Assembly (NCBI GenBank): GCA_018303685.1
Contig: JAGVXS010000039.1
Span: 1 to 14,964, forward strand
Direction of reading: 5' to 3'
Origin: Candidatus Woesearchaeota archaeon
Lineage (GTDB): Archaea; Nanobdellota; Nanobdellia; Woesearchaeales; GW2011-AR4
DNA: 14,964 bases
The translations under genes were made by a program, and so were the position numbers. Below the pieces are notes generated by a model. That model saw nothing but the letters and a program-made list of their open reading frames with translations. It was not told the origin of the DNA and did not search any database. Positions 1 to 14,567 of the stretch are shown one piece after another (position 1 is the stretch's first letter; each line of letters starts with the position of its first letter).

Positions 1-1370
1 TTTGATGTAAGCAGTTTTTTCAGAAGTACAATCTGCTCAATCATGTCAGTCTTTTCGCTTATCTGTGCCATTGGCTTTACCTTCATCTCATCAAGCCTTT
101 TGATTGCGCAATCCCCATATGCAACAAGCCTTTCTTTGCCTTCAAGCATTTCCCCTGAAAGCACGGAGCCCATTACAAGATTAAGCTGTTCTCCCCTCAA
201 TCCAATAAGCCTTGATGTTGCATTGAACATTGCGTTCAGGCATGCAGGGCAGGCTTTTCCGTCAATAACCTTGATGTCAGGATGCGGGGTTTCTTCTGCA
301 ACCGGCTTTTTTATGGGGTATTTTAATGCATCAAGCTCGTTGCCGACAATTTCAATATCTTTTATCGCATTTTTGCCTAGCTTTATGTAAGGCGGGATTT
401 CAAGCATGGATGCTTTGCAGAAAACAGCATCAAGCATTGCTGGATTTCTGCCTGCATAAACAAGGTTAAGGAAAGCCGGCTCTCCAAGAGTTAATGGACC
501 CTGCCCCTGCATTCCGCTTGTTGCATCAGCTATTGTAATCACATTCAATGCATTAACAAGCTTTGGCAGTGTCTCATCTATATTGTCAAAGTACATCCTT
601 CTCTGGGTAGGCTCGTCGCAAAGCCTTGACAAGTTTTCCACTGCCCCTGACAATCCAATCTGGGAGTTTGTCTTCATTATAGGGGCATTGATGATTTTCC
701 TGTTCAATGTTTCCTTAAGAATCTTAAATTTGTATCCGTCGCTTTCAATCTCCTCAAAGGGGCCTTTTGAAATGTCAGCAAAGCTTATGTCATTCTTTTT
801 GCAAACTTCAAGTATGCCTGCCTTTGAAGCAGCATCCATTGAATCCGAGCCGATTAGCGCCTGCTCCGCTATCATAATGTTTTCTTTGCTAATCCCATGC
901 TCCAGCAGAGCCAAAATCAGCGCATTCAGAAAATCTGGATTTGTGTTTACAGCCTGATATGGATAAGCAGCAGCCACAATGCTCGGCTTGACTAAAATCT
1001 TGTCGTCTTTGCCCAAATCAATCCTGTTCAAAAGCCCAACAGCATCTTTAATCGCTTCATAAATATCATACTTTACTTTTACAACAGCAACAGCATCTTT
1101 GCCCTTTGCTCTTTGCTCGACATAATCATCTCCAATCTTGTAATCCTTCATAGTTTTTTTAGGCATCCTGTTGCCGTGCTCATCCTCAAGAAGCAGGACA
1201 TTATATGGTATGATTGGGTGCATGGGAGAGGGAATTGCAACCTTTGTAATGCCTGCAACCCTTATCTTGGCGCCTTTCTGCTTGATTACAGGTCCTTTGC
1301 AGTAAACACATTTTTCAATAGGGTAAATCCATTTCTTGCTGCATTTTTCACATATCCACCTTATTATCAT
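1..1370 (-). CDS. DUF35-type zinc-ribbon/OB-fold domain fused to a DUF362 domain protein (C-terminus cut by the window edge; missing from the supplied ORF track)
   Basis: Manual minus-strand translation from ATG 1370-1368 gives 456 uninterrupted codons down to position 3. I checked positions 3-420 codon by codon for in-frame stops and found none. N-terminus is MIIRWICEKCSKKWIYPIEKCVYCKGPVIKQKGAKIRVAGITKV...PYNVLLLEDEHG, i.e. a CxxC-x10-CxxC ribbon (1299-1352) plus an OB-like segment, as in thiolase-associated DUF35 proteins. From about aa 115 the DUF362 pattern appears: KILVKPSIV, IMKTNSQIGLSGAVENL, ITIADATSGMQGQGPLTLG, RNPAMLDAVFCKA. An extra C-terminal region contains GKACPAC and YGDC. The ATGA start/stop overlaps the thiolase stop. 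GGTGGGGG SD lies at 1372-1379. Confidence 0.8.
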   Translation of the reverse strand, partial: MIIRWICEKCSKKWIYPIEKCVYCKGPVIKQKGAKIRVAGITKVAIPSPMHPIIPYNVLLLEDEHGNRMPKKTMKDYKIGDDYVEQRAKGKDAVAVVKVKYDIYEAIKDAVGLLNRIDLGKDDKILVKPSIVAAAYPYQAVNTNPDFLNALILALLEHGISKENIMIAEQALIGSDSMDAASKAGILEVCKKNDISFADISKGPFEEIESDGYKFKILKETLNRKIINAPIMKTNSQIGLSGAVENLSRLCDEPTQRRMYFDNIDETLPKLVNALNVITIADATSGMQGQGPLTLGEPAFLNLVYAGRNPAMLDAVFCKASMLEIPPYIKLGKNAIKDIEIVGNELDALKYPIKKPVAEETPHPDIKVIDGKACPACLNAMFNATSRLIGLRGEQLNLVMGSVLSGEMLEGKERLVAYGDCAIKRLDEMKVKPMAQISEKTDMIEQIVLLKKLLTS

Positions 1371-2491
1371 GCCCCCACCTTCTTCAGGATATGCACAGTA
1401 ACTGTGCTTCCTGCCCCGCCTATATTATGTGCCAGCGCATAATTTACATTATCAACCTGCCTGTCGCCAGCCTGTTTTCGCATCTGCTTCGCAAGATCGT
1501 AAACCTGTGCAATTCCTGTTGCGCTTATCGGGTGGCCTTTTGCCTTCAGCCCGCCGCTTGTATTCACAGGCAGCTTTCCATTTAAGTTGACTGTGCCTTT
1601 CCTTATCATGTACTTGCCTTCTCCTTTTTTGCAAAACCCCAAATCCTCATAGGAAATAACCTCAACAGGAGTGAAGGCATCGTGCAATTCAGCAACATCG
1701 ATATCACTAGGAGACAAATTTGCCTGTTTGTAAGCTTCTTCCGCGGCAAGTTTGCTGGCTTGCCATGAAGTCATGTCCTCGTTTTCAAAAGCTGAAAGCC
1801 TGTCAACATATAGGCTTGAGCCTGCTATCTCAATATCTGTTTTTTCTTTTGTCAGAATAGCTGCGGCAGCGCCATTGACAGACAAGCTGCAGTCAAAAAG
1901 CCTTAATGGAGATGCAACAACAGGAGACTTCTTTATCTGCTTTAATGTAACCTGCCTTTTGTAAAACCTTGCCTTTGGATTCAGATAAGCGTTGCTGTGG
2001 TTTTTAAAAGCAACCAATGCAAAATCATCTGTTGTAGCGCCATACCTGAGCATGTACTGTTGCGCAACCAAGGCGTTCTGTGCAGGAAAAATCAGTCCAT
2101 CAGCCTGCTCATACAATCTTTCAGCTGCCATAAGGATTTCGTCTGTTGTATTTGCAGTGTTATTGGACAGCAGCCTTTCAGAGCCAACAACAAGCACATT
2201 CTCATAACCCATTTTATTTGCTGTCCAGATTGCTGAACCTCCTCCGCCGCAGACAGCAGATGATGTTAGTATGGGAACCTTCTTTTTGAACATGCTGCTT
2301 AAAATCGAGGAAAACCCCCTCTGCCTTTCACCACTGCTTTCATTGTCAACAGTTGATGAGACAATAGCATCTATATCTTCCATATTAAAATTAGCGTCTT
2401 CCAACGCCTCCATTGTAGCTTCATAGACAAGCTCCTGGCTTGTATCTGTCTGTGCCCCGAACTTTGTCATGCCAACTCCTTTTACGTACAT
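1367..2491 (-). CDS. Thiolase-superfamily acetyl-CoA C-acyltransferase, SCP-x / DUF35-associated archaeal type
   Basis: 374 aa. N-terminus YVKGVGMTKFG. Nucleophile Cys81 in SSAVCGGGGSA (codon 2249-2251). ELHDAF, KGHPISATG and C-terminal AHNIGGAGS are typical of SCP-x/archaeal thiolases that lack the second catalytic Cys. GAGGGG SD lies 9 nt upstream. Confidence 0.9.
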   Translation of the reverse strand: MYVKGVGMTKFGAQTDTSQELVYEATMEALEDANFNMEDIDAIVSSTVDNESSGERQRGFSSILSSMFKKKVPILTSSAVCGGGGSAIWTANKMGYENVLVVGSERLLSNNTANTTDEILMAAERLYEQADGLIFPAQNALVAQQYMLRYGATTDDFALVAFKNHSNAYLNPKARFYKRQVTLKQIKKSPVVASPLRLFDCSLSVNGAAAAILTKEKTDIEIAGSSLYVDRLSAFENEDMTSWQASKLAAEEAYKQANLSPSDIDVAELHDAFTPVEVISYEDLGFCKKGEGKYMIRKGTVNLNGKLPVNTSGGLKAKGHPISATGIAQVYDLAKQMRKQAGDRQVDNVNYALAHNIGGAGSTVTVHILKKVGA

Positions 2492-2504
2492 AGAATTTAC
2501 CCCT

Positions 2505-2996
2505 CTACCTCGCGAATTTTGACCTGAACTCTGCCCTGTTTACAATTGCCAGCATCAGCAAAGCCTCTGCCACCAAAGTGTCTTTTACAAACGCCTTGCC
2601 CTGAAGAATCGCCCCTCTTTCATCCTGGGCTATCAAATCCAGCTCGAACCTTGCAGTATCCCCAGGCAGTATAGGGGCCATGAATTTTACTTCTTTCATC
2701 TTGTAGGCAAGCACATCCTTCTCCTGATGGTTTGGGATATTGTTTCTCACAAGCAAAGTGCCTGCCTGCCCCATACCTTCAACAGTCAAAGCGCCTGGCA
2801 TTATTGGAAAGCCTACAAAATGGCCTTTAAGGAAATCCTCTTTGCCTGTGACATCCTTTTCAGCTACTATACTGCTACTCGTCAGGCTTATAACCCGGTC
2901 AATGAATAAAAAGTGCTCGTCATAGGGTATAATCTTCTTGATGTTATCTGCGTTTATTCCGCCATCCGCGTTTTTCAGCTCGTTAAACCGGCTCAT
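2505..2996 (-). CDS. fabZ: FabZ-like hotdog-fold 3-hydroxyacyl-thioester dehydratase
   Basis: 163 aa. FabZ core motif LKGHFVGFPIMPGALTVEGMGQAG, with His59 (2820-2822) and Glu73 (2778-2780) 14 residues apart as in bacterial FabZ. N-terminal IPYDEHFLFIDRV corresponds to LPHRYPFLLVDRV. Confidence 0.85.
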   Translation of the reverse strand: MSRFNELKNADGGINADNIKKIIPYDEHFLFIDRVISLTSSSIVAEKDVTGKEDFLKGHFVGFPIMPGALTVEGMGQAGTLLVRNNIPNHQEKDVLAYKMKEVKFMAPILPGDTARFELDLIAQDERGAILQGKAFVKDTLVAEALLMLAIVNRAEFRSKFAR

Positions 2997-3020
2997 TTTA
3001 GCTTGTTTCTAAACTTTGGT

Positions 3021-3034
3021 TTAATTTAAATAAC
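3021..3034 (-). promoter_or_regulatory. TATA-like box for the fabZ-thiolase-DUF35 operon
   Basis: Minus strand reads GTTATTTAAATTAA, centred about 31 nt upstream of the fabZ-like ATG (2996). Confidence 0.45.
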
Positions 3035-3060
3035 TTTCTACCATTATATTTTTTAATATA

Positions 3061-3081
3061 TATAATAAAATAGTTATTATA
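3061..3081. promoter_or_regulatory. Perfect 8-5-8 inverted repeat (candidate operator) between the divergent TATA boxes
   Basis: TATAATAA (3061-3068), AATAG, TTATTATA (3074-3081); the arms are exact reverse complements. The background is very A/T-rich, so a chance occurrence is plausible. Confidence 0.3.
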
Positions 3082-3112
3082 AAGTATATCCATTACTGGA
3101 AAACACAAAAAT

Positions 3113-3124
3113 CTTTATAAAAAG
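3113..3124 (+). promoter_or_regulatory. TATA-like box for accC-birA
   Basis: CTTTATAAAAAG, centred about 26 nt upstream of ATG 3144. This spacing fits a leaderless or very short-leader mRNA. Confidence 0.5.
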
Positions 3125-3143
3125 AGAAGCAAAAGCATGCTGT

Positions 3144-5063
3144 ATGCTTAAGGGAAAAAAATTAGTGAGCAAGTCAGCGAGCTTGAGGCGCAAATTAGTA
3201 TTGGACATCATCAACAGGGCTTTGAAGCCTTTGGAGAGTATGTATATAGCCTTGGCAGGCTCTGCTAAAAAAACCAAAGAGATGTTTCCTGCCTTATACA
3301 GGCACTTTGAAGAGCTGATTAAGCAGCATATAATCACGCCAGGTAAAAGCATTTTTAACTCATCAAAAATAGGCGGCATGGGCGGCTTTATAACAACCAA
3401 TGTCATGAAAAGGCTGCCGCATATCGACGAAGCCCAGATAGAAGAAATACTCGGCAACCCCTCAAATAAGTCATTTCTGGAAATACTTACGAGGGGATTC
3501 GGCATAAACAGAGATAAGGAGAAAACATATACCAAACTTGGCAACGGTAGCTTCAAGAGAATATTAATTGCAAACAGGGGAGAGATAGCACTGCGCATAA
3601 TAAGAGCGTGCCGCGAACTGGGCATAGAAAGCATCGCAATTTATTCTGATGAAGAAAAAGACAGCCTGGTTGTGAAGTTCGCAGACAAGTCCTACAACAT
3701 AGGCAAGCCGAAGAACTACCTCAACATCAAGAAAATAGTTGAGATAGCAAAGCAAAGCGAATGCGATGCAATCCATCCCGGTTACGGGTTCCTTTCAGAA
3801 AACCCCAAGTTTGCAAGGCTATGCGAGAAAAGGGGCATAAAATTCATAGGTCCGTCTTCAAGGATGATAGGGAAGCTTGGAAACAAAATAGAGGCGAAAA
3901 ATGCAATGCTCAAGGCAAACATCCCGGTAATAGAAGGAGTTAAAGAAGATCTAAAGAGCAAGAGGCATGCACTAAGGGCTGCAAGAAGGAGCGGATTTCC
4001 CGTCATACTAAAAGCATCTGCAGGAGGCGGAGGCAAAGGGATGAGGATTGTCGAAAGGGAAGAGGATGTTTTTAATGCCTACGAAAGCGCAGAGAAAGAG
4101 GCGTTAAACTCTTTTGGCAGCAGCTCGCTGTACATAGAAAAATACCTTGAAGAGCCAAAGCACATAGAGTTCCAGATTTTGGCTGACAGGCATGGAAATG
4201 TCATCCATCTTGGGGAGAGGGACTGCAGCATACAGAGAAGGCACCAGAAGCTGATAGAGGAGGCGCCAAGCCCTGCACTTGACAATGAGCTAAGGGAATT
4301 GATGGGCGCTGCTGCCGTGAATGCAATAACGGCTATAGGCTATGAAGGGGCAGGCACTGTGGAATTCTTGCTGGACAAGAACAGGAATTTCTATTTTATA
4401 GAGATGAACACAAGAATACAGGTTGAGCATGGCGTTACAGAAATGGTGACAAATGTAGATTTGATAAAGGAGCAGATAAAACTCGCCGAAGGAGCCAAGC
4501 TTGCTTACAATCAGGAAGACATAAAGGTAGAGGGGCATGCAATTGAATGCAGGATAAATGCAGAGGACCCAAGCAACAATTTTGCGCCTTCTCCGGGCAC
4601 TGTCGTCAACTACCTGCCTCCGGGAGGGCCCGGCATCAGGATAAGCAGCTCGTGCCATACGGGCTGCAGGATTCTGCCGCAATTTGACTCTTTAATCGCC
4701 TTGCTTATCTGCCACGGCAGGACAAGGCACGAGGCAATAGCCAGGATGAGAAGGGCTTTGGACGAGTTTATTATTGAGGGGGTAAAAACTACGACGCCGT
4801 TCCACAAGCTTGTGCTTAGCAAGAGGCAATTCCTGAAGGGAAATGTTGCAACATCTTTTATAGAAAACAATATGATAATGGAGGAGATGAAAGGATTAAA
4901 GCAGAAAAAAGAGGCTTTGCCGAAAGAGAAAAAAGTGCTTATAGTAACAACAGCAGTCGCGCAGTACCTTGTGAAAAAACAGGATGCACCAGGCAAAAAA
5001 ATAAATCCATGGGTGATGGCAGCGAGGCAGGAAGCGCTGAATGAGGGAAGCCTTGAAGAATAG
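3144..5063 (+). CDS. accC: Biotin carboxylase (ATP-grasp) subunit of an acyl-CoA carboxylase, with a ~136-aa N-terminal extension and a ~63-aa C-terminal tail
   Basis: 639 aa. From aa 137: FKRILIANRGEIALRIIRACRELGI, HPGYGFLSEN, glycine-rich lid KASAGGGGKGMRIV, EMNTRIQVEHGVTE, IECRINAEDP. TATA-like box 3113-3124 lies about 26 nt upstream of ATG 3144. The nearest internal in-frame ATG (3405) would still leave about 50 extra residues. Confidence 0.93.
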   Translation: MLKGKKLVSKSASLRRKLVLDIINRALKPLESMYIALAGSAKKTKEMFPALYRHFEELIKQHIITPGKSIFNSSKIGGMGGFITTNVMKRLPHIDEAQIEEILGNPSNKSFLEILTRGFGINRDKEKTYTKLGNGSFKRILIANRGEIALRIIRACRELGIESIAIYSDEEKDSLVVKFADKSYNIGKPKNYLNIKKIVEIAKQSECDAIHPGYGFLSENPKFARLCEKRGIKFIGPSSRMIGKLGNKIEAKNAMLKANIPVIEGVKEDLKSKRHALRAARRSGFPVILKASAGGGGKGMRIVEREEDVFNAYESAEKEALNSFGSSSLYIEKYLEEPKHIEFQILADRHGNVIHLGERDCSIQRRHQKLIEEAPSPALDNELRELMGAAAVNAITAIGYEGAGTVEFLLDKNRNFYFIEMNTRIQVEHGVTEMVTNVDLIKEQIKLAEGAKLAYNQEDIKVEGHAIECRINAEDPSNNFAPSPGTVVNYLPPGGPGIRISSSCHTGCRILPQFDSLIALLICHGRTRHEAIARMRRALDEFIIEGVKTTTPFHKLVLSKRQFLKGNVATSFIENNMIMEEMKGLKQKKEALPKEKKVLIVTTAVAQYLVKKQDAPGKKINPWVMAARQEALNEGSLEE

Positions 5064-5811
5064 TTTTTACAGTTCTTTGGATAATAGCTATATGAAGTGC
5101 AAAATTTACCGCTTCAAATCATTGAAGTCCACTCAAGACAAAGCCAAGGAATTTTCCAAGAAAGGACTAAAAAATATTGTTATTGTCGCTGATGCGCAGA
5201 TAAAAGGGAGAGGGCGCTTCAAAAGAAAATGGCACTCTGCCAAAGGAGGCTTGTGGATGTCAATCTTACTTTCGCCAAAAAAAGCGGAAAATCTGCAATA
5301 CCTGACATTTGCCGCGGCAATAGCAGTTGTCAAGTCCATTAAAAAAATGACAGGCATCAGCACAAAAATAAAATGGCCCAATGACGTCCATTACAACGGC
5401 AGGAAATTGTGCGGCATTCTTACAGAAGGGATTTTTCCAGCTAATTATGCTGTTATAGGGATTGGTGTTAATGTCAACCAAAGCAAATTTCCCAATGAAA
5501 TAAAAAACACCGCTATATCACTCAAAATGATTAAAAACCAAACAATATACATTAAAAAACTGATTAGAAATATACTTTATGAATTTTTCAACTTATATAA
5601 TAATTATTACAATAAAAATAAATTTGAAAAAATATCAAAAATCTGGAAAATGCATTGTGATACAATAAACAGGGACGTAACCGCAATCACAAGAGCTGGC
5701 AGATTAAGCGGGAAGGCAATAGGCATCGATGAAGAAGGCAGCCTGCTGCTGAAAACAGGCAAAAGCAATGTAGTTAAAGTTGCAGAGGGAGACATAAGCA
5801 TCAGGTACTAA
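5041..5811 (+). CDS. birA: Biotin--[acetyl-CoA-carboxylase] ligase, class I (no N-terminal DNA-binding domain)
   Basis: Biotin-binding loop KGRGRFKRKWHSAKGGLWMSILLSP (GRGR codons 5206-5217). KWPNDV motif. C-terminal SH3-like end VAEGDISIRY. Start is uncertain: ATG 5041 overlaps accC by 23 nt and has AGGAAG upstream; ATG 5092 is the alternative (239 aa). Confidence 0.88.
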   Translation: MREALKNSFYSSLDNSYMKCKIYRFKSLKSTQDKAKEFSKKGLKNIVIVADAQIKGRGRFKRKWHSAKGGLWMSILLSPKKAENLQYLTFAAAIAVVKSIKKMTGISTKIKWPNDVHYNGRKLCGILTEGIFPANYAVIGIGVNVNQSKFPNEIKNTAISLKMIKNQTIYIKKLIRNILYEFFNLYNNYYNKNKFEKISKIWKMHCDTINRDVTAITRAGRLSGKAIGIDEEGSLLLKTGKSNVVKVAEGDISIRY

Positions 5812-5815
5812 TCAC

Positions 5816-5829
5816 AATATTTAAAAAAG
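5816..5829 (+). promoter_or_regulatory. TATA-like box for the small membrane protein-bioY unit
   Basis: AATATTTAAAAAAG lies about 29 nt upstream of ATG 5851, directly after the birA stop. Confidence 0.45.
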
Positions 5830-5850
5830 ACACTGGCAAACTTCAGCAGA

Positions 5851-6081
5851 ATGGCGATTTTGAAGAGCATACCAATATTAAAAAAGCTTGTGGACATGGC
5901 ATACGCAATATTGGTAGTGATTGTCTTAAGCGCCTTGGTCGGACTGATTCTGGCGTTTCCTGTCAAACTGCTCTGGAACTATGTGTTCGGGAGCTATCTC
6001 ACAATCAACTGGTTTCAGGCATGGGCCCTGAATGTCCTGACAGGAATACTTTTAAGCAAAACCGGAAACGGAAAAAGGTGA
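5851..6081 (+). CDS. Small hypothetical membrane protein (76 aa, two predicted TM helices)
   Basis: Hydrophobic segments AYAILVVIVLSALVGLILAF and WFQAWALNVLTGILL. TATA-like box 5816-5829 lies about 29 nt upstream of the ATG. Its stop is 4 nt before the bioY ATG, and the bioY SD (GGTGA) lies inside its last codons. Confidence 0.55.
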   Translation: MAILKSIPILKKLVDMAYAILVVIVLSALVGLILAFPVKLLWNYVFGSYLTINWFQAWALNVLTGILLSKTGNGKR

Positions 6082-6085
6082 TGAT

Positions 6086-6739
6086 ATGATAACTGCAAAC
6101 AAAAACAAGACTTTGTACGAGATTCTGTTTCATCAAAGTACAATAATGCTTGATGTTTTTATGATACTTGCAAGCGTTGTTTTTATGGCGGCAATGGCAA
6201 ACATTACAATACCAGCCTCATACATAGCGGCTATGGAGAAGATGTTCCATATACCGCTTTGGCCGGTGCCCATCACAATGCAGACTTTTGGTGTTTTTAT
6301 TGTTACATTCTTCTTCGGCTCAAGAAAAGGATTGATTGCGATGGCTGCATATGCCCTTGCCGGGCTCCTCGGCTTTGGGGTTTTTGCAGGCCACAAGTCG
6401 GGAGTTGATGTATTTTTGAAAGCCAGCGAAGGATTCAAGCTTGCCCCGTCAGGCGGATATATAATAGGATTTTTGCTTATGGCGTTCCTTGTGGGGATTA
6501 TGATAGAGAAAGGCTACGGGAGAACAGGAAAAAGCATATTGCTGTGCATGCTTGTTGGTGAGATTGTGTTATATACAATCGGCCTTCCTTGGCTTTGGAT
6601 AGCGCTCGGAAAGATATCATGGCTTCAGGTCCTCAAATTCGGCTTGGTTCCTTTCATCATAGGAGACACACTGAAGGCACTGCTCGCAGCTGCATTGTTC
6701 CCTTATATGTGGAAAGGGGCAGAGAAGATAGGCAAGTAA
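6086..6739 (+). CDS. bioY: Biotin transporter BioY (ECF-type S component, here without visible A/T components)
   Basis: 217 aa, multi-TM. PVPITMQTFGVFIVTFFFGSRKG, AGLLGFGVFAG and GGYIIGFLLMAFLVG match the BioY family pattern. It sits in the biotin ligase / carboxylase context. Confidence 0.85.
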   Translation: MITANKNKTLYEILFHQSTIMLDVFMILASVVFMAAMANITIPASYIAAMEKMFHIPLWPVPITMQTFGVFIVTFFFGSRKGLIAMAAYALAGLLGFGVFAGHKSGVDVFLKASEGFKLAPSGGYIIGFLLMAFLVGIMIEKGYGRTGKSILLCMLVGEIVLYTIGLPWLWIALGKISWLQVLKFGLVPFIIGDTLKALLAAALFPYMWKGAEKIGK

Positions 6740-6746
6740 GCATTGC

Positions 6747-7136
6747 TCATTCTATTATTGCAAGCACATCGCCCCTGTTCACATTGTCATTTTTCTTTAC
6801 CTTAACATCTTTTAATACACCATCCTTAGGCGCGGTTACCTCATTCTCCATTTTCATAGCCATCAGTATAAACAGGCTCTGCCCCTGCTTTACCCTTGCG
6901 CCTTCTTTGGCTTTTATTTCGTAAATAATCCCGGGAAGAGGCGCTGTTATTTCAGTAGCCCCCTCACTTATCTTCTGCCTTTTTTGCAGCCTGTCAATTG
7001 CGGATGTTTCAGCATCTTTTTTTGTCTCAACTTCGTAAACATCAGAGCCGCAGTGCACAAGTATTTTGCCCTCTTCTGTTTCCTCTACAAAAACCTTGTA
7101 TTCCCTGCCGTCAACCTTAACAACAAGCTCTTCCAT
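6747..7136 (-). CDS. accB: Biotin carboxyl carrier protein (short, 1.3S-like type)
   Basis: 129 aa. Biotinyl domain APLPGIIYEIKAKEGARVKQGQSLFILMAMKMENEVTAPKDGVLKDVKV. Biotinyl-Lys95 codon AAA lies at 6852-6854. N-terminal VKVDGREYKVFVEE resembles short transcarboxylase-type carriers. The ATG is 2 nt after the carboxyltransferase stop. Confidence 0.9.
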   Translation of the reverse strand: MEELVVKVDGREYKVFVEETEEGKILVHCGSDVYEVETKKDAETSAIDRLQKRQKISEGATEITAPLPGIIYEIKAKEGARVKQGQSLFILMAMKMENEVTAPKDGVLKDVKVKKNDNVNRGDVLAIIE

Positions 7137-7138
7137 GT

Positions 7139-8656
7139 TTACAATGGCATGTTTCCGTGTTTTTTTGCCGGCTTTTTTTCTCTTTTAGAAAGCAGCATTT
7201 CAAGGCACTTGACCATGGCAATCCTTGTGTTTTTTGGCTCAATTATCATATCAATTTTTCCGAGGCTTGCTGCACTATAGGGGTTAAGGTATTTTTCCGA
7301 GTACTGCCTTGATAGCTCAGATTTCAGCTTCGGGTTTTTGCTTAGCTCATCCTTGTTTATTATACTGACTGCCTGCTCAGCGCCCATGACTGCAATCTCG
7401 GCCATTGGCCACGCTATAACCTTGTCAAAGCCCATCCCCTTTGAGACAAGTGCGATGTAAGCCCCCCCATACGCTTTTCTAAGCACAAGCGATATTTTTG
7501 GCACAGTCGCCTCGGAATAGGCGTAAAGCACCTTTGCGCCGTGCCTTATTATGCCATTATGCTCCTGCTCTGTGCCGGGCAAATAACCAGTGACATCAAC
7601 AAGATTTATGAGCGGTATGTTGAAGCAGTCGCAAAATCTCACAAATCTTGAAATCTTGTCAGAGGAGTTAATGTCAAGGCAGCCCGCCAGCACCTTCGGC
7701 TGGTTGGCTACAACTCCAACAACATAGCCGTTAAGCCTTGCAAACCCGATAACCGCATTTTGCGCGTAATTCGCCCCAACCTCAAAAAAGGATTTTTTGT
7801 CAAAAATCTCTATGATGACATCTTTTATATCATAAGTCTTTTTTGGGTCTTCCGGAACAATGCCCTGAAGCCTTTTTGTTTCTCTTGCCGGAATGTCTGT
7901 GGAATGATAAGGGGGGCTCTCAAGATTATTCTGGGGGAGATAGCTCAGCAAAATCTTTATCATGTCCAAGCATTGCTTTTCATTTTCTGCCATGAAATGC
8001 GCTACGCCGCTTTTCTCATTTTGGACTGATGCGCCCCCCAGCCCCTCAAAGTCAATTGCCTCGCCAGTGACTGTTTTTATTACATCAGGACCTGTAATGA
8101 ACATGTAGCTTGTTTTATTCACCATAAAAACAAAGTCAGTCAAAGCAGGGCTGTAAACGGCAATACCTGCGCAAGGGCCAAGTATTGCAGATATCTGCGG
8201 TACAATGCCTGAAGACAAAGTGTTAAGCTGAAATATCCTGCCGCCGCCTTCCAGGGCGGAAATTCCTTCCTGTATCCTTGCCCCTCCTGAGTCAAACAAG
8301 CCGATGCACGGGCATCCTGTTTTCAATGCCAGCTCCATCACATGGGCTATTTTTTCGTTGTGAGTATTGCCCATCGAGCCGCCCATAAAGGAGAAGTCCT
8401 GTGCGTAGACATAAACAGGCTTTTTGCTTATTGTGCCATAGCCGGCTACAACACCATCACCATACCTTCTTTTTGCCTCAAGCTCCTTGCTTTGCAGCTC
8501 TGCAAAAGCATCAAGCTCTGCAAAAGAGCCTGTATCAAGAAGGTGCTTAAGGCGCTCTCTTGCAGTAAGCTTGCCTTTTTTGTGCTGCACTTCGGCAGCG
8601 TGCTTGTCATCAAGCGCTTTGCTCCTTTCAAGAAACTCCCTAACCTTCTCCCCCAT
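7139..8656 (-). CDS. pccB: Acyl-CoA carboxylase carboxyltransferase subunit (PccB/AccD5/MmdA family)
   Basis: 505 aa. KGKLTARERLKHLLDTGSFAELDAF, FDSGGARIQEG and a second-half AYGGAYIAL. This is the two-crotonase-fold CT length. TATA-like TTTTTAAA (minus strand; 8679-8686) lies about 26 nt upstream of the ATG. Confidence 0.93.
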   Translation of the reverse strand: MGEKVREFLERSKALDDKHAAEVQHKKGKLTARERLKHLLDTGSFAELDAFAELQSKELEAKRRYGDGVVAGYGTISKKPVYVYAQDFSFMGGSMGNTHNEKIAHVMELALKTGCPCIGLFDSGGARIQEGISALEGGGRIFQLNTLSSGIVPQISAILGPCAGIAVYSPALTDFVFMVNKTSYMFITGPDVIKTVTGEAIDFEGLGGASVQNEKSGVAHFMAENEKQCLDMIKILLSYLPQNNLESPPYHSTDIPARETKRLQGIVPEDPKKTYDIKDVIIEIFDKKSFFEVGANYAQNAVIGFARLNGYVVGVVANQPKVLAGCLDINSSDKISRFVRFCDCFNIPLINLVDVTGYLPGTEQEHNGIIRHGAKVLYAYSEATVPKISLVLRKAYGGAYIALVSKGMGFDKVIAWPMAEIAVMGAEQAVSIINKDELSKNPKLKSELSRQYSEKYLNPYSAASLGKIDMIIEPKNTRIAMVKCLEMLLSKREKKPAKKHGNMPL

Positions 8657-8676
8657 AAGCCAGGCTTATGAATGAG

Positions 8677-8689
8677 TGTTTAAAAAGGT
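8677..8689 (-). promoter_or_regulatory. TATA-like box for the carboxyltransferase-BCCP unit
   Basis: Minus strand reads ACCTTTTTAAACA, centred about 26 nt upstream of ATG 8656. Confidence 0.45.
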
Positions 8690-8709
8690 TTTGAAATGTT
8701 TTAATGAGG

Positions 8710-8715
8710 AAAAAA
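8710..8715 (-). terminator. Oligo-T tract downstream of radB (archaeal-type intrinsic terminator candidate)
   Basis: A6 on the plus strand equals T6 on the minus strand. It begins 6 nt after the radB stop and lies upstream of the next TATA box. Confidence 0.35.
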
Positions 8716-8720
8716 TCACC

Positions 8721-9452
8721 CTAAAAAAGCTTGAATCCCCTGCTTTCAGCTGCGGCTATTATGCCGCTGTCAACAATCTTAAACAAAACTTCCTTCTCAC
8801 CGCCAATGCTCCTGTGCTTCCTCAGGATGGCCCTCCTGTTGTTGTTTGGGGTGGTTTGCAGTTCTATGAGGCACTTGCTGCCGTATTTGAGAATGTCGCC
8901 GCCGACAATGTTAACCTTGTCCCTGTCGTCAAAGTCCGTATAAACCTGGTTTGTGATGAGCACCGGAATCTGCTTTTTCCTTGCTATCTCAGTAAGCCAG
9001 GAAATCTGCTTTCCGAGCTCAAGGTTTACTTCATGGATATCATCGTTTTTGCCCAGCTCAAGGCGGTAAAGCATTGCTATGGTGTCAACGACTATCAGCC
9101 CAATCCTGTCATTGACTATGTCCCTGAGCTTCTCAAAAGACTTCTTTTGCTCCGAAAAGCTTGTCGGCCTCAAAAATATTATGTTGTCAAGTATTTTTTT
9201 GTAGTCTTGGCTTATGCTTGAGCATATCTGCCTGAATCTCTCGAGAGAAAAGCCGCCCTCGCTGTCAACATAAACAACTTTTTTCCCGTTTCTGGCCACA
9301 TCAACCGAGCAGAGCAGGCAAAGAATTGTCTTGCCCGAGCCGGCAGGCCCGTAGATTGTAGTTATAACATCTTTTTCATAGCCGCCATCAAGCATTGTGT
9401 CAAGCAGCTTGCTGCCTGTTGATATATTATTGTTCAATTCCACATCTTCCAT
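8721..9452 (-). CDS. radB: DNA repair and recombination protein RadB (RecA/RadA paralog)
   Basis: 243 aa. ISTGSKLLDTMLDGGYEKDVITTIYGPAGSGKT (Walker A), VVYVDSEGGFSLERF, and Walker B LIVVDTI. It is colinear by eye with Pyrococcus-type RadB and has no N-terminal HhH domain. Confidence 0.85.
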   Translation of the reverse strand: MEDVELNNNISTGSKLLDTMLDGGYEKDVITTIYGPAGSGKTILCLLCSVDVARNGKKVVYVDSEGGFSLERFRQICSSISQDYKKILDNIIFLRPTSFSEQKKSFEKLRDIVNDRIGLIVVDTIAMLYRLELGKNDDIHEVNLELGKQISWLTEIARKKQIPVLITNQVYTDFDDRDKVNIVGGDILKYGSKCLIELQTTPNNNRRAILRKHRSIGGEKEVLFKIVDSGIIAAAESRGFKLF

Positions 9453-9471
9453 AGCTTATGGCATTCCCTCC

Positions 9472-9485
9472 AATTTTATAAAATT
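9472..9485 (-). promoter_or_regulatory. Palindromic TATA-like box upstream of radB
   Basis: AATTTTATAAAATT is a perfect 14-bp palindrome centred about 26 nt upstream of the radB ATG (9452). Confidence 0.5.
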
Positions 9486-9512
9486 TGTTGTTTTGGCTGT
9501 TAATCTAGGAAA

Positions 9513-9524
9513 CCTTAAATATAC
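9513..9524 (+). promoter_or_regulatory. TATA-like box for the DUF4190-like gene
   Basis: CCTTAAATATAC lies about 30 nt upstream of ATG 9549. Confidence 0.5.
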
Positions 9525-9548
9525 ATTAAAAAAACAATTACAACCAAT

Positions 9549-10001
9549 ATGAACAAGCATTTATCTCCGGGAGCAGCGTGGGCACTTTATCTTCTTATCA
9601 TTATCTACGTAATAATTGCCAAGTACAACAATATGACACTATTCAAGATGGATATTTACTATGCAGTCCTGCTGGCTGTATTGCCGCTATGCGCTGCATA
9701 CACATACTATGCTGACAGGCACAAAAGACAGGGGCTTTCCATAAGCTCTTTCGCATTTGGCCTGTTATTCTGGATTCCACTGCTTAACCTGATTTTTGGG
9801 CTGCTGGCAGTATACCTTGGAATAAAATCCCTGATTGGCATCAAAAAAAAGCCATCCAAATATGGGGGAAAATGGCTTGCGGTTATAGGCATCATATTAG
9901 GCTCCATAGTATACATAACATACCTCACAGGCATAGGAATGTGCCTATACGGCTATAAGGAAGTCTGCAGGAACATAGGACTGGATTTTCTGGCTCGATA
10001 A
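9549..10001 (+). CDS. Small integral membrane protein, DUF4190-like
   Basis: 150 aa, about 4 TM. GLLAVYLGIKSLIGIKKKPSKYGGKWLAVIGIILGSIV resembles the DUF4190 repeat pattern. TATA-like box 9513-9524 lies about 30 nt upstream. Confidence 0.65.
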   Translation: MNKHLSPGAAWALYLLIIIYVIIAKYNNMTLFKMDIYYAVLLAVLPLCAAYTYYADRHKRQGLSISSFAFGLLFWIPLLNLIFGLLAVYLGIKSLIGIKKKPSKYGGKWLAVIGIILGSIVYITYLTGIGMCLYGYKEVCRNIGLDFLAR

Positions 10002-10070
10002 TTTTAATAGAAATATTTAAAAGTACTAATCTTTTATGTCTTATGTTATACAAGGTATTTCAATAACACA

Positions 10071-11315
10071 ATGGAAGACGTCATAATGCTCGGGTCAGGC
10101 ATACTTTTCGGTATTTTGTTTTTGTTCCTCACATTCATTTTTCTTATATTTACAATTTCCTGGTTTTTCAAGGGAAACAGAAGCGGCTTTGAGCCGAAAG
10201 TAACTATTGTAATACCAGCCTATAACGAAGAGAATAACATCACCGAATGCATAGATTCCATCTTCAGCTCCAGCTATAAGAAAAACAAGATGGAGGTCAT
10301 CGTGGTTGATGACGGCTCAAAAGACAATACATTAACCGTGCTCAGAAAATATAAAGAGGTTAAAATACTGAGGCAGAACCATCTTGGAAAGGTAGAAGCG
10401 CTGAATAAAGGAGTTTTGAGATCTTCCAATGAATTTATTGTGACTATTGATGCAGACACAGTGCTTGACAAAAACTGCATAAGGGAGCTTGTCAGCCCTT
10501 TTCATGACGGGAATATAGGCGCAACTACAGGCAACAACAATGTCAAGAACAACAAGTCCATTATCAGCGCATTCCAGAACATTGAATACCATTTCAGCAA
10601 CTTAATAAGAAACAGCTTTTCCAAAGTTTTCAGCAACGGCATATGGTTCAGCGGCTCTTTGGCATGCTACAGGAAAAAATCACTGGAAAAAATCGGCTAT
10701 TTCAAAAAAGACACACTTGCAGAGGACCAGGATATTGCACTGGAGATGAAAAAAGCAGGCTGCAAAACATTAAATACGCCAAAAGCGATAGGATACACGC
10801 TTGTGCCGACAAAAGTCAGCGACCTGTACAGGCAGAGGGCAAGGTGGTGGATAGGCACTTTGCAGGCTATAGTAAAAAATAAGTCGCTTTTCTCGAGGAA
10901 GTCAAGCCCGTCAATACTGTTCCTTTACATAAACCAGTTTTGGTGGTCCTTTTACGCGTTTCTGTCCTTGCCACTGATAGTGTACCAGATAAACTACTGG
11001 CTGCCATACAATTCACAGGGCATGTTCAGCATGCTCGGCTATTTTTTCAAGTGGCTGAGCCTCATGGGGCCAATATATGTGCTATACAAAATTCCCGATT
11101 TTGGAGTGTCATTGTACAGCATCTTCGGCGTTTTGTCAGGCATTATGACAACGATATTAAGCATAGCTGCGTTAAAAATGTTCAATGACAGGGTTAGCCT
11201 GAAAAACGTGCTTGCAATATTTTTTTACTTTCCATATACAATAGTTTTAAATATAATAATCTTAGTCAGCCTGTTAAGGAACAGGTTTTGGGAAGAAAGC
11301 TATTATATCAAGTGA
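10071..11315 (+). CDS. Membrane-integrated processive family-2 glycosyltransferase, NodC/IcaA/PgaC/chitin-synthase-like
   Basis: 414 aa. N-terminal TM, then VTIVIPAYNEE, VVDDGSKD, GKVEALNKG, DAD (10449-10457), AEDQDIALEMKKAG and QRARW (10833-10847), followed by about 4 C-terminal TM helices. Confidence 0.88.
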   Translation: MEDVIMLGSGILFGILFLFLTFIFLIFTISWFFKGNRSGFEPKVTIVIPAYNEENNITECIDSIFSSSYKKNKMEVIVVDDGSKDNTLTVLRKYKEVKILRQNHLGKVEALNKGVLRSSNEFIVTIDADTVLDKNCIRELVSPFHDGNIGATTGNNNVKNNKSIISAFQNIEYHFSNLIRNSFSKVFSNGIWFSGSLACYRKKSLEKIGYFKKDTLAEDQDIALEMKKAGCKTLNTPKAIGYTLVPTKVSDLYRQRARWWIGTLQAIVKNKSLFSRKSSPSILFLYINQFWWSFYAFLSLPLIVYQINYWLPYNSQGMFSMLGYFFKWLSLMGPIYVLYKIPDFGVSLYSIFGVLSGIMTTILSIAALKMFNDRVSLKNVLAIFFYFPYTIVLNIIILVSLLRNRFWEESYYIK

Positions 11316-11321
11316 GCCAAA

Positions 11322-12671
11322 ATGCTAAAAGAAATTTTACAGCAATTCATCCAGAATTACATAGCATTAGTAACAGAATTCTTTTCATGGTATAATGCTG
11401 CAGGGAGGAGAATACTCGACTTTTTGCACAATATGTTTAATGGCGCATTCAACGCTTTGCTTTTAGTAGCTGTTTTGATGTCAGTGCTTTACCTGATAAT
11501 GTCTTTTTACATACTCTTCAAGAAGCGCGAGCAGAAGCAGGAAGAGCCAGTTGATGATGAAAACCTGCCTTTGGTTACGGTGCAGATTCCGACCTTTAAC
11601 GAGCTCGTTGCTATAAGGTGCGCGAAAAGCTGCCTTGGCTTTGATTACCCTAAAGACAGGTACGAGATTCTCATAGGGGACGACAGCAACAGGCCTGAAA
11701 TTTCAAGGAAGCTGAAGGAATTTGCTAAGCAGCACAGCTTGGTGAAAGTGATAAAAAGGCAGAGCAATATCGGGTACAAGCCTGGCAACCTGAACAACAT
11801 GCTAAAATACTCAAAAGGGGAAATTATTGTGATTTTTGACTCTGACTTTGCGCCGCAGCCCGATTTCCTGAAAAGGATAGTCAAGCCTTTCATGAAAGAC
11901 AAAAAGATTGCAGGAGTGCAGGCAAGATGGAAGCTCATCAATTACAACCAAAACCTTGTGTCTGTGCTGGGCTCTACAATAGTGTCAACATGCCATCATA
12001 TTACAATACCCTTTATGTACCAAAGGAGGGGGATAACCTTCCTTTGCGGCTCTGCCGAAGCAGTAAGGAAAAGCGTGCTTGCAGAGATTGGCTGCTGGGA
12101 AAGCGGCAACCTGACTGAAGACATAGAGTTCTCACTCAGGCTGCTTGAGAGGGGCTACAAGATAGAGTATCTGGACGACTTGGAGTGCGACAGCGAAGTT
12201 CCATACACGCTCAAGGATCTTTACAAACAGCAAATGAGATGGGCGTATGGGGTTATCTACTCCTGGAAAAAGCACTTTATAGCAATAGCAAAGAGCAGAC
12301 ACCTTCGCTTGATGGACAAGATGTACATGGGGATTATATTCTGCAGCGGGTATATGCTCTCAGTCCTTCTTGCAGGGCTCTTTATAACAGGCACTCTCAG
12401 CTTTATGACGCATGCTCCTGCGCCTATAGAATGGGGAAGGTTTTTTTACGAGATGGCAAGAAACATCATATTAACCAGCGGCTTGATTGTGTCAAGCATA
12501 GTTGCGCTTGCAAAGGCCAACAAGTCAAGGCTGACGCTTCCTATGATAGCATCATCATTCAGCTACGGAATTGTAGTGACCTATTATGTAAATGTAGGCA
12601 TTTTCAAGGCATTGTCAAAAACACCAATGGAATGGTACATGCTTAACAAGCAGGGCAATAAGATTGACTGA
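11322..12671 (+). CDS. Membrane-integrated processive family-2 glycosyltransferase, cellulose-synthase-like (Csl/BcsA-like core)
   Basis: 449 aa. VTVQIPTFNE, IGDDSN, GYKPGNLNNML, FDSDF, TEDIEFSLRL and QQMRW (12228-12242), with C-terminal TM helices. It starts 6 nt after the preceding GT2 gene. Confidence 0.88.
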   Translation: MLKEILQQFIQNYIALVTEFFSWYNAAGRRILDFLHNMFNGAFNALLLVAVLMSVLYLIMSFYILFKKREQKQEEPVDDENLPLVTVQIPTFNELVAIRCAKSCLGFDYPKDRYEILIGDDSNRPEISRKLKEFAKQHSLVKVIKRQSNIGYKPGNLNNMLKYSKGEIIVIFDSDFAPQPDFLKRIVKPFMKDKKIAGVQARWKLINYNQNLVSVLGSTIVSTCHHITIPFMYQRRGITFLCGSAEAVRKSVLAEIGCWESGNLTEDIEFSLRLLERGYKIEYLDDLECDSEVPYTLKDLYKQQMRWAYGVIYSWKKHFIAIAKSRHLRLMDKMYMGIIFCSGYMLSVLLAGLFITGTLSFMTHAPAPIEWGRFFYEMARNIILTSGLIVSSIVALAKANKSRLTLPMIASSFSYGIVVTYYVNVGIFKALSKTPMEWYMLNKQGNKID

Positions 12672-12683
12672 TTCTTTAGAAAG

Positions 12684-12694
12684 TATTATTTATT
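12684..12694 (+). promoter_or_regulatory. TATA-like box for the GT-C glycosyltransferase gene
   Basis: TATTATTTATT is centred about 27 nt upstream of ATG 12716. Confidence 0.4.
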
Positions 12695-12702
12695 CTTGCG
12701 TA

Positions 12703-12709
12703 TTTTTTT
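12703..12709 (+). terminator. Oligo-T tract after the GT2-GT2 pair
   Basis: A T7 run starts 32 nt after the stop at 12671. It overlaps the next gene's promoter region, so its role is ambiguous. Confidence 0.3.
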
Positions 12710-12715
12710 AATAAA

Positions 12716-14107: not shown

Positions 14108-14567
14108 CATTGATGAAATCCCCCAATGTAAATCCATTAATTCTTCTGCCTTTGGATGTTTCATGACTTTCCTCATACTCCTCAACCAGCCTGACCCCAA
14201 GGAATCTTTCCAGTTTTTTTGCCAAGGATAATGGAGGGGCTAAAGCGCCTGTCTCAATCTTATGGACGGTTGCCTCCTTTTCACTGATTTTACGGGCAAA
14301 ATCTTTCTGCGTAAATCCCATTGACTCCCTCTTTTTCCTGATTACCTCGGCATAGTTTTCCACCAACAGCTCCATTTTCTCCTCTTTCTGCCGAGCTTGG
14401 CTCTTCATCCGCATTACTTGGGATTTTGCATCAAGCCTTTTCGGCTGCTGGACAACTTTGCCGAATCTTGCGCAGTCATTGCAGACGTCAAGCTGCACGC
14501 CCTCTATACCAACTTTTGCCAGACTTTCTGCCCTCTTGCCGCACAAGTCGCAATTGATTTTAATCAC
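14097..14567 (-). CDS. mbf1: Archaeal multiprotein-bridging factor 1 (zinc ribbon + Cro/C1 HTH)
   Basis: 156 aa. N-terminal CDLCGK...CNDCARFG ribbon. HTH GFTQKDFARKISEKEATVHKIETG. Conserved archaeal C-terminal TLGDFI. The start is GTG at 14567, the only start codon after the in-frame stop at 14577-14579. Confidence 0.9.
   Translation of the reverse strand: MIKINCDLCGKRAESLAKVGIEGVQLDVCNDCARFGKVVQQPKRLDAKSQVMRMKSQARQKEEKMELLVENYAEVIRKKRESMGFTQKDFARKISEKEATVHKIETGALAPPLSLAKKLERFLGVRLVEEYEESHETSKGRRINGFTLGDFINVKK

Follow-up and report, generated by a model that had tools for sequence, protein, structure and literature searches.

A candidate acyl carrier protein-independent fatty-acid synthesis operon with a DUF35-DUF362 fusion protein in Woesearchaeota

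Organization of the FabZ-thiolase locus

A 14,964-nucleotide (nt) stretch of DNA from a tiny groundwater archaeon (Candidatus Woesearchaeota archaeon, contig JAGVXS010000039.1 of assembly GCA_018303685.1, positions 1 to 14,964; hereafter the window) carries, in its left 3 kb, three minus-strand genes encoding a FabZ-type dehydratase, a thiolase, and a third protein whose open reading frame (ORF) continues past the left edge. We estimate at roughly 60 % the probability that these genes belong to an operon for a fatty-acid synthase (FAS) that uses coenzyme A (CoA) thioesters, independently of an acyl carrier protein (ACP), and feeds glycerol-3-phosphate ester lipids in this DPANN archaeon. An earlier note, made from the window alone, had described the three genes as linked, and the linkage proved to be real. 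Re-reading of the sequence places the gene for the dehydratase, a hotdog protein of 163 amino acids (aa) from the FabA/FabZ family of 3-hydroxyacyl-thioester dehydratases, at positions 2505 to 2996 (TAG stop codon at 2507-2505) and the gene for the 374-aa thiolase at 1367 to 2491. Between them lies a 13-nt spacer, AGGGGTAAATTCT (2492 to 2504), in which a purine-rich element resembling a Shine-Dalgarno sequence precedes the thiolase ATG; the GAGGGG that the note had assigned to this spacer takes in the last G of the stop codon. As also noted before, the thiolase stop codon and the start codon of the third gene overlap as ATGA at 1367 to 1370, an arrangement pointing to translational coupling. 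The third gene occupies positions 1 to 1370, and 456 of its 481 codons fall within the window.

The dehydratase matched the Pfam family FabA (PF07977; E value of 2.3e-21, 76.3 bits against a cut-off of 23) and reached 104.3 bits, just under the cut-off of 113, with the stricter NCBIfam FabZ equivalog NF000582. Matches to FabZ entries of the PDB began at 2.6e-24, and His59 (in GHF) and Glu73 (in VEGMGQ), which the earlier note had called intact, aligned to the catalytic positions of the solved structures and were invariant in 47 of 47 orthologues. The MaoC profile yielded an E value of only 0.0075, under its cut-off, which makes the enzyme FabZ-type and not MaoC-type; it did not profile as a thioesterase, an outcome that would have spoken against the proposal in the note.

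The thiolase is of the SCP-x type (Pfam Thiolase_C_1, 1.1e-48) and is closest to archaeal acetoacetyl-CoA thiolases (ACATs; PDB 7yvy, 3.5e-66; 6esq_A, 5.8e-58). It carries the nucleophile Cys81, the histidine of an HDxF motif (here HDAF), and the histidine of a GHP motif, all kept in 46 orthologues; DUF35-associated ACATs are defined by these motifs, namely, Cys, HDxF His, and GHx His (PMC12960953). We considered whether HDAF in place of HDCF, and thus the absence of the general-base Cys, might mark a decarboxylating thiolase. This idea was dropped because HDxF with its catalytic His is a defining feature of the DUF35-associated ACATs and because the closest solved ACAT, 7yvy, itself has HDAF.

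The third protein is a DUF35-DUF362 fusion

The locus was extended past the left edge by means of metagenome contigs from similar groundwater samples that carry an identical thiolase gene. The full-length protein comprises 481 aa, and its sole Pfam match is DUF362 (PF04015; aa 125-319, positions 414 to 998 on the minus strand; 1.7e-24, 87.5 bits against a cut-off of 24). Pfam DUF35 did not match the N-terminal 114 aa at E values of up to 10, despite a CxxC...CxxC pattern, nor related fusion proteins at E values of up to 1, and a family profile of the fusion protein matched no PDB sequence, neither of DUF35 nor of LarA. The assignment of both parts therefore rests on fold and profile-profile evidence.

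An AlphaFold2 (AF2) model built on 36 orthologues (pLDDT 83, pTM 0.80) was searched against the PDB with Foldseek. Residues 1 to ~100 matched DUF35 subunits (E values of 4e-4 to 1e-2, probability 1.0, 20-22 % identity), namely, 6ok1 (ChsH2), 7pyt/7pxp (BbsA), 6esq_E/F, 9vbt (MucC), 3irb (SSO2064), and 6htj (Trf). These matches cover every solved thiolase-type complex, with 6ok1_D and 7pyt_A among the best. In addition, hhalign aligned the N terminus to seven bona fide DUF35 ORFs from related loci with 87 % probability (E value of 3.7e-6) over the zinc ribbon and the 'PY..LL' strand. Residues ~110 to 480, in turn, matched nickel-pincer racemases of the LarA family (7s91, 9eia, and 9q3j; E values of 1.8e-7 to 2.4e-4, probability 1.0, TM 0.33-0.44) with a two-lobed Rossmann-type fold, and DUF362 shares Pfam clan CL0471 with the N-terminal domain of LarA (LarA_N) (PMC11770544). 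Standalone DUF362 proteins match profile positions ~90-430 of the fusion family. The model thus suggests that about one fifth of the protein is DUF35-like and that the remainder is a complete LarA-like DUF362 protein, whose LarA-N-like Rossmann-type core lies at aa 125-319 and whose remaining part runs to the window edge. The DUF35-type zinc-ribbon/OB protein of the earlier note is therefore recovered in the N-terminal ~104 aa (a Cys4 zinc ribbon plus OB fold; positions 1059 to 1370 on the minus strand), while the size of the protein and its larger part had been missed.

Both parts are conserved in 53 archaeal sequences and in 106 sequences from bacteria of the candidate phyla radiation (CPR). 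The DUF35-like part retains C7, C10, C21, and C24 (the Cys4 site), H51, P55, and Y56, and the DUF362 part retains K183, N228, K233, N246, D/E282, D314, and E319; the latter set points to a genuine site of binding or catalysis within the DUF362 lobe. A C-terminal CPAC sequence with Cys421, considered as a metal or Fe-S site, was ruled out, since these Cys residues are absent or replaced in many orthologues. To our knowledge, DUF362 has no known function, and neither its joining to DUF35 nor its occurrence beside thiolases has been reported before; we regard the fusion as the most novel part of the locus.

Genes beyond the left edge and around the operon

Past the left edge, where the earlier note had proposed to look for reductases, the next gene encodes a FabG-type ketoreductase (TIGR01830, 309 bits against a cut-off of 297.75) with the classical S...YxxxK motif. 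It is followed by a second thiolase, 63 % identical to the first and carrying the same motifs, by a family III CoA-transferase, and by a methyltransferase-FabG fusion, after which come TRAM, LigT, and rpS2. With FabG and both thiolase paralogues, the operon numbers at least 5 to 7 genes. Nearby on the opposite strand lie the genes for GpsA, an NAD(P)H glycerol-3-phosphate dehydrogenase (410 bits against a cut-off of 257), and two PlsC-type acyltransferases (PF01553). No 3-hydroxy-3-methylglutaryl-CoA (HMG-CoA) synthase was found in the window or in the 10 kb beyond its left edge, as the note had observed for the window itself, nor in ~37 kb around the locus; a further 6 kb to the right of the window held nothing relevant.

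The FabG and, in the methyltransferase fusion, its short-chain dehydrogenase/reductase (SDR) half are identical over ~180 aa (L001 8686-9420 and 11692-13401; L005 2937-3671), which reflects a recent duplication or gene conversion. Contig L005 lacks the stretch between the two SDR copies, with the second thiolase, the CoA-transferase, and the methyltransferase, as either a population variant or an assembly collapse. The same identity to FabG, together with the ketoreductase YxxxK motif, ruled out the methyltransferase-SDR fusion as a candidate for a missing enoyl reductase.

On the other side, an AT-rich intergenic region of 147 bp (2997 to 3143), presumably a shared promoter region, separates the FabZ operon from divergent plus-strand genes for the biotin carboxylase subunit of acetyl-CoA carboxylase (ACC; 3144 to 5063; identified with Pfam and with NCBIfam accC, 642 bits against a cut-off of 626.5), the biotin-protein ligase BirA (5041 to 5811; Pfam BPL_LplA_LipB and BPL_C), and the biotin transporter component BioY (6086 to 6739; Pfam BioY, 1.1e-33). 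The biotin carboxyl carrier protein (BCCP; 6747 to 7136; Pfam Biotin_lipoyl, 1.6e-19) and an acyl-CoA carboxyltransferase subunit of the 12S/PccB type (7139 to 8656; Pfam Carboxyl_trans, 7e-178) are then encoded on the minus strand. The start of BirA is ambiguous: the longest ORF begins at 5041 and overlaps the biotin carboxylase gene by 23 nt, whereas the metagenome-annotated product of 239 aa begins at 5092. The biotin carboxylase bears a 135-aa N-terminal extension (3144 to 3548, plus strand) with no Pfam match, which 34 Woesearchaeal orthologues keep (22-97 % identity) and the CPR orthologue lacks; its AF2 model from a single sequence was all-helical and, at a pLDDT of 48, unusable.

Conservation of the module in archaea

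More than 100 orthologues of the fusion protein, 63-99 % identical, come from genomes named Woesearchaeota, Pacearchaeota, or Nanoarchaeota. Among species-representative genomes, a scan yielded 56 loci, in which ORFs were called and assigned by BLASTP to a reference set; synteny was counted over 55 of them. The synteny check, which the earlier note had proposed, placed FabZ upstream of the thiolase and the fusion gene in each of the 42 informative species-level Woesearchaeota and Nanoarchaeota loci, with a median gap of 9 nt between FabZ and the thiolase. The thiolase adjoins the fusion gene in 50 of 55 loci, the -4 (ATGA) overlap being the commonest spacing. This arrangement is more than chance, and such strict linkage of FabZ to the thiolase and fusion genes, often through overlapping codons, argues for one pathway. 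Downstream, a second thiolase is present within 1.2 kb in 43 of the 55 loci and an SDR within 6 kb in 39, while biotin carboxylase (with its divergent orientation to FabZ kept) was found in 37, PlsC in 22, and GpsA in 20, the last three counts being limited by contig ends.

In loci L047-L060, the fusion protein is shorter (~375 aa) and lacks the last ~100 aa, and the genes follow one another on one strand in the order FabZ-Thl-fusion-Thl-FabG-(acyl-CoA dehydrogenase-EtfB-EtfA)-PlsC-PlsC-GpsA (Thl, thiolase). This co-directional cluster is probably a single operon, with gaps of up to 2.5 to 4 kb in some loci. Among relatives, the type of clustered enoyl reductase varies by lineage, being Bcd/EtfAB, FabK-like, or an SDR that resembles peroxisomal trans-2-enoyl-CoA reductase (PECR). 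Where loci reach downstream marker genes, long-form fusions lacked a clustered reductase in 15 of 18 cases, whereas short-form fusions had one in 8 of 9; the pattern is suggestive, being essentially one phylogenetic contrast. Parts of the module are also joined by gene fusion, as in a DUF35-DUF362-SDR protein of 743 aa (L048) and in FabZ-FabK-like proteins (L062 and L066). Together with the translational coupling, these fusions lend indirect support to a complex of the encoded proteins.

The core of the module adjoins housekeeping genes (rpS2 and RadA/RadB), and the methyltransferase and CoA-transferase are its variable parts. Both observations bear on the idea of a specialised-metabolite cluster of the polyketide or aryl-polyene type, in which thiolase-fold condensing enzymes would act with a methyltransferase and tailoring reductases. 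The dehydratase does match an ApeI-like Pfam family as well, the methyltransferase-SDR fusion and the CoA-transferase are present, and DUF35 complexes have been recruited to secondary metabolism in PhlABC and MucABC (PMC12960953). Nevertheless, the core is kept over an order-level clade and in CPR bacteria, always in the company of phospholipid genes, and we consider such a cluster highly improbable.

Two groups of matches carry unexpected taxonomic labels. L010, L012, L013, and other 'binchicken' loci derive from metagenome-assembled genomes (MAGs) labelled 'uncultured Methanosarcinales archaeon'; at 65-73 % identity to Woesearchaeal loci, this label looks like placeholder taxonomy. L061 is a 4-kb contig labelled 'Nitrospinota' whose thiolase and fusion genes are of the Woesearchaeal type, and it probably reflects contamination of the bin.

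A version of the module in CPR bacteria

Starting from L062, the most divergent genome match, we reached more than 120 relatives of a short fusion protein of 340 aa from Paceibacterota, Minisyncoccales, Nealsonbacteria, and Parcubacteria, some of which had been named 'uncharacterized OB-fold protein' by JGI. L062 is placed in the CPR on the strength of these named relatives and their bacterial contexts (NusA, pilin, and toxin-antitoxin genes), its own flanks alone being insufficient. The CPR thiolase carries the same VCxGGG/HDAF/KAKGHPIS motifs and is followed by genes in the order fusion-(BioY)-SDR-FabZ-FabK-like-PlsC-BC-BCCP-BirA-CT-(PlsY) (BC, biotin carboxylase; CT, carboxyltransferase), with FakA/DegV adjoining and, in one case, a cyclopropane-fatty-acid synthase. 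The occurrence of one module in both domains implies transfer between co-occurring ultra-small organisms.

Two further features of these loci were observed. Between the thiolase and the fusion gene, L065 (6806-7297), L066 (9285-9785), and L067 (8890-9387) carry a PF04019/DUF359 gene, which we take to belong to the archaeal GTP-dependent dephospho-CoA kinase family and which would then constitute another CoA-related, archaeal-flavoured link. In the Parcubacteria-type locus L067 (2880-3437 and 18588-21038), CarS-like, geranylgeranyl-reductase-like, polyprenyl synthase, and PcrB/GGGPS-like genes stand beside the module, which brings archaeal-type lipid genes next to bacterial-type ones.

HMG-CoA synthase coexists with the module in some relatives

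The earlier note had proposed that FabZ takes the place of HMG-CoA synthase in a thiolase/DUF35 operon. The unit turned out to be larger, and seven loci (L007, L017, L026, L041, L046, L057, and L059) carry, inserted downstream in the same cluster, a true HMG-CoA synthase of the archaeal kind (475 bits against a cut-off of 244) with its own thiolase-like gene and a standalone DUF35 gene. In several of the seven, there are also a MaoC dehydratase and an SDR for which the human peroxisomal trans-2-enoyl-CoA reductase is the second-best match in the PDB. Because the HMG-CoA synthase trio coexists with it, the module represents an additional paralogous system and not a substitution.

The thiolase-like gene beside HMG-CoA synthase has lost the nucleophile Cys in six of the seven loci (L007, positions 16790-17899; L017; L026; L041; L057; and L059), the residue being replaced by Asp in five (e.g., AGDASG) and by Gly in L057, and its product is, judging from these replacements, probably non-catalytic. 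The two thiolases of the module (Thl1 and Thl2) may consequently supply acetoacetyl-CoA to HMG-CoA synthase, and one could go further and assign the thiolase and DUF35 part of our locus to the canonical acetoacetyl-CoA role in the mevalonate pathway, with FabZ and FabG only loosely associated. The closeness of the thiolase to the archaeal ACATs 7yvy and 6esq and the true HMG-CoA synthase a few genes downstream in the seven relatives agree with that assignment. However, the ~37 kb around the window's locus and most other loci are free of HMG-CoA synthase, as is the module in the CPR loci, and the conserved partners are FabZ, FabG, ACC, and PlsC, compared with 6 of 55 loci in the synteny count for HMG-CoA synthase. 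We judge a purely mevalonate-directed role to be improbable.

Evidence on the acyl carrier

No ACP-like ORF was detected in 67 loci, searched in the neighbourhood up to 10 kb on each side where the contig allows, and the precomputed Pfam calls of the annotated loci L001-L008 and L065-L067 contained no 3-ketoacyl-ACP synthase (KAS), FabD, or PP-binding genes. These results concern neighbourhoods, and a conventional ACP-dependent type II system of bacterial origin might be completed by ACP, AcpS, FabD, and KAS encoded elsewhere in the genome, leaving the thiolase and fusion genes with a separate job, e.g., acetoacetyl-CoA formation. FabZ and FabG do match the bacterial ACP-dependent families, ACC catalyses the classical first step of type II synthesis, and a 2024 survey in mBio listed FabG, FabI, and FabZ of DPANN MAGs as 'ACP pathway' genes (PMC10936187). 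Yet nearly all other lipid genes cluster in these very neighbourhoods, FabZ is coupled to the thiolase and fusion genes without exception, and CoA esters are the substrates of the acyl-CoA dehydrogenase/Etf encoded in that operon. ACP-related enzymes, moreover, have been reported missing from the CPR genomes examined, and an ACP-independent route has been raised as a possibility (PMC7242380). An ACP-dependent system thus appears unlikely, and the insertion of acyl-CoA dehydrogenase/EtfAB, a CoA-specific enzyme type, in sister lineages strengthens the case for CoA as the carrier.

In another reading, the pathway would not serve membrane-lipid synthesis. A fermentative or catabolic CoA pathway could run either as reverse beta-oxidation to butyrate or caproate, serving redox balance and energy conservation through bifurcation by Bcd/Etf and release of the acid by a CoA-transferase, or as beta-oxidation of fatty acids that the cell has scavenged. 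Clostridial-type butyrate pathways do typically contain thiolases, Bcd/EtfAB, and a family III CoA-transferase, and Woesearchaeota have been described as fermenters. The cluster, on the other hand, has the biosynthetic (R)-type pair FabG and FabZ instead of Hbd and crotonase, ACC is always attached, and no acyl-CoA synthetase or respiratory sink accompanies it. Two PlsC genes and GpsA belong to the same co-directional cluster in several lineages, and the CPR versions stand beside PlsY/PlsC and cyclopropane-fatty-acid synthase. A catabolic or fermentative pathway seems quite unlikely to us in view of this context.

A putative CoA-based fatty-acid synthase

Collectively, the gene content (FabG, ACC, GpsA/PlsC, acyl-CoA dehydrogenase/EtfAB, and no ACP nearby) supports and strengthens the earlier view of a condensation-plus-dehydration module acting on CoA thioesters and not supplying isoprenoid precursors. 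None of the three outcomes that the note had named as refuting this view was observed. In the CoA-based FAS that we favour, the two paralogous SCP-x-type thiolases would perform the Claisen condensation, held in a physical complex by the DUF35 zinc-ribbon/OB module of the fusion protein by analogy with thiolase/DUF35 complexes. The FabG-type reductase would convert 3-ketoacyl-CoA, presumably to (R)-3-hydroxyacyl-CoA, the FabZ-type hotdog enzyme would dehydrate the latter, and an enoyl-CoA reductase, depending on the lineage Bcd/EtfAB, FabK-like, or a PECR-like SDR, would close the cycle. The flux would run in the synthetic direction, and its acyl-CoA products would be added by the two PlsC-type acyltransferases to glycerol-3-phosphate made by GpsA, giving bacterial-type phosphatidic acid. 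The divergent ACC with BirA and BioY probably supplies malonyl-CoA to drive the condensation, and DUF362 might contribute to the pathway in some manner.

Several points weigh against this interpretation. FabZ and FabG are classically ACP-dependent enzymes, and DPANN archaea are generally held to scavenge their lipids. In the window's own genome, no enoyl reductase, whether a medium-chain dehydrogenase/reductase (MDR) or one of another type, was found within ~37 kb. By comparison of motifs, both thiolases look like ordinary non-decarboxylating ACATs, and they could also feed acetoacetyl-CoA to HMG-CoA synthase. Since, in addition, the Sulfolobus acidocaldarius thiolase did not use malonyl-CoA (10.1101/2024.07.05.601840), the role of the ACC, which is invariably attached in archaea and CPR bacteria alike, would be left unexplained.

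A more far-reaching version of the CoA-based FAS would be a complete, ACP-free, malonyl-CoA-driven de novo synthase of DPANN archaea and CPR bacteria, with a decarboxylative thiolase and full-length DUF362 as a new catalytic subunit. DUF362 could then, for example, perform the enoyl-thioester reduction that lineages with a truncated DUF362 obtain from Bcd/Etf or FabK. We regard this version as unlikely; were it true, radiations thought to be 'lipid auxotrophs' would be self-sufficient in ester lipids, and archaeal-type condensing machinery would serve an archaeon in building a membrane of the bacterial type.

Relation to known systems

The closest functional parallel is the FAS of S. acidocaldarius, which consists of the thiolase Saci_1121 and the DUF35 protein Saci_1120 with the FabG-like reductase Saci_1104 and the dehydratase Saci_1085 (Schmerling et al. 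2024, 10.1101/2024.07.05.601840). There, the thiolase/DUF35 heterotetramer binds the FabG-like NADPH-dependent reductase and the hotdog dehydratase and converts acetyl-CoA to enoyl-CoA without an ACP; a separate enoyl-CoA reductase completes the cycle, and acyl-CoAs are made (10.1101/2024.07.05.601840). The Woesearchaeal locus likewise encodes an adjacent thiolase and DUF35 module, a FabG-type ketoreductase, and a hotdog dehydratase, would likewise use CoA thioesters and no ACP, and likewise leaves the enoyl reductase outside the core. In contrast to S. acidocaldarius, its dehydratase is FabZ-type and not MaoC-type, although FabZ-type enzymes have been stated to be absent from archaea (10.1101/2024.07.05.601840). 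It also differs in having two thiolase paralogues and a DUF35 module fused to a full LarA-like DUF362 protein, in grouping the genes into one operon attached to ACC and GpsA/PlsC, and, in relatives, in using Bcd/Etf, FabK-like, or PECR-like enzymes instead of an NADPH-dependent MDR enoyl-CoA reductase. By analogy, the cluster may work like the S. acidocaldarius FAS as a distinct variant without the MaoC dehydratase and the MDR reductase.

With the thiolase/HMG-CoA synthase/DUF35 complex of Methanothermococcus thermolithotrophicus (6esq/6et9; derivatives PhlABC and MucABC), the locus shares a thiolase of the same family with Cys/HDxF/GHx motifs, a DUF35-like module by fold (6esq_E/F), and gene adjacency with translational coupling. 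It departs from this complex in having no HMG-CoA synthase partner, the second thiolase-fold partner being a thiolase paralogue, and in its DUF35 part, where the N-terminal helix region is missing and a DUF362 extension of 380 aa is attached. The best fold matches of the DUF35 module are the benzoylsuccinyl-CoA thiolase BbsAB (7pxp/7pyt) and the steroid aldolase Ltp2-ChsH2 (6ok1), in both of which the DUF35 module has as its docking partner an SCP-x-type enzyme of the thiolase fold that acts on CoA esters; ChsH2 is likewise a DUF35 fusion, there with a MaoC hydratase. Both systems are catabolic with aromatic or steroid substrates, and their fusion partners and gene contexts differ from ours.

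Bacterial type II FAS resembles the locus in its FabZ with catalytic His/Glu, a FabG that passes the NCBIfam equivalog cut-off, a biotin-dependent ACC of three parts, and genes for glycerol-3-phosphate acylation, and differs in its ACP, FabD, and KAS (FabH/FabB/FabF), none of which occur in the cluster, where the thiolases are the sole condensing enzymes and the host is an archaeon. The LarA superfamily of nickel-pincer-nucleotide 2-hydroxyacid racemases, finally, is related to the DUF362 part by Foldseek (E value of 1e-7, probability 1.0) and by Pfam clan CL0471, whereas no sequence-level similarity of the fusion protein to LarA was detected.

Individual elements of the system were known before: FabG, FabI, and FabZ in DPANN bins (PMC10936187), GpsA and PlsC in Woesearchaeota (PMC6431249), and the idea of ACP-independent synthesis in archaea (PMC3533463; 10.1101/2024.07.05.601840). 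A search for Woesearchaeota, DPANN, Parcubacteria, and Patescibacteria in the literature collection available to us found no earlier description of the operon or of the strict core that FabZ, thiolase, and fusion gene form in it. The same holds for the DUF35-DUF362 fusion, for enoyl reductases within the operon that differ by lineage, and for the occurrence of the module in both Woesearchaeota and Parcubacteria.

Implications for lipid synthesis in ultra-small organisms

It is a widespread view that neither DPANN archaea nor CPR bacteria can synthesise membrane lipids. With its ACC, thiolases, FabG, FabZ, GpsA, and acyltransferases, and with an enoyl reductase in most lineages, the conserved cluster could enable them to make phosphatidic acid for themselves, and the question of their lipid self-sufficiency thereby becomes testable with a handful of recombinant proteins. 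The locus also bears on the 'lipid divide', as an archaeon is seen to couple bacterial-type glycerol-3-phosphate ester-lipid genes with an archaeal-style thiolase/DUF35 condensing system. For DUF362, whose thousands of members are related to the nickel-pincer LarA enzymes, it provides a first functional context, and it extends the repertoire of DUF35 scaffolds. Fatty-acid synthases that need no ACP are also of interest to those who engineer CoA-based chain elongation.

Other features of the window

An Rfam search of the window returned no match, and a scan for sigma-70 promoters and terminators was set aside as not meaningful for an archaeon. Positions 9549-14107 resemble a cell-surface glycosylation block unrelated to the finding described here, with a DUF4190 membrane protein, two family-2 glycosyltransferases (chitin-synthase-like matches), and a 463-aa GT22/PMT-like membrane protein. 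This block is followed by MBF1-like and YjbQ genes.

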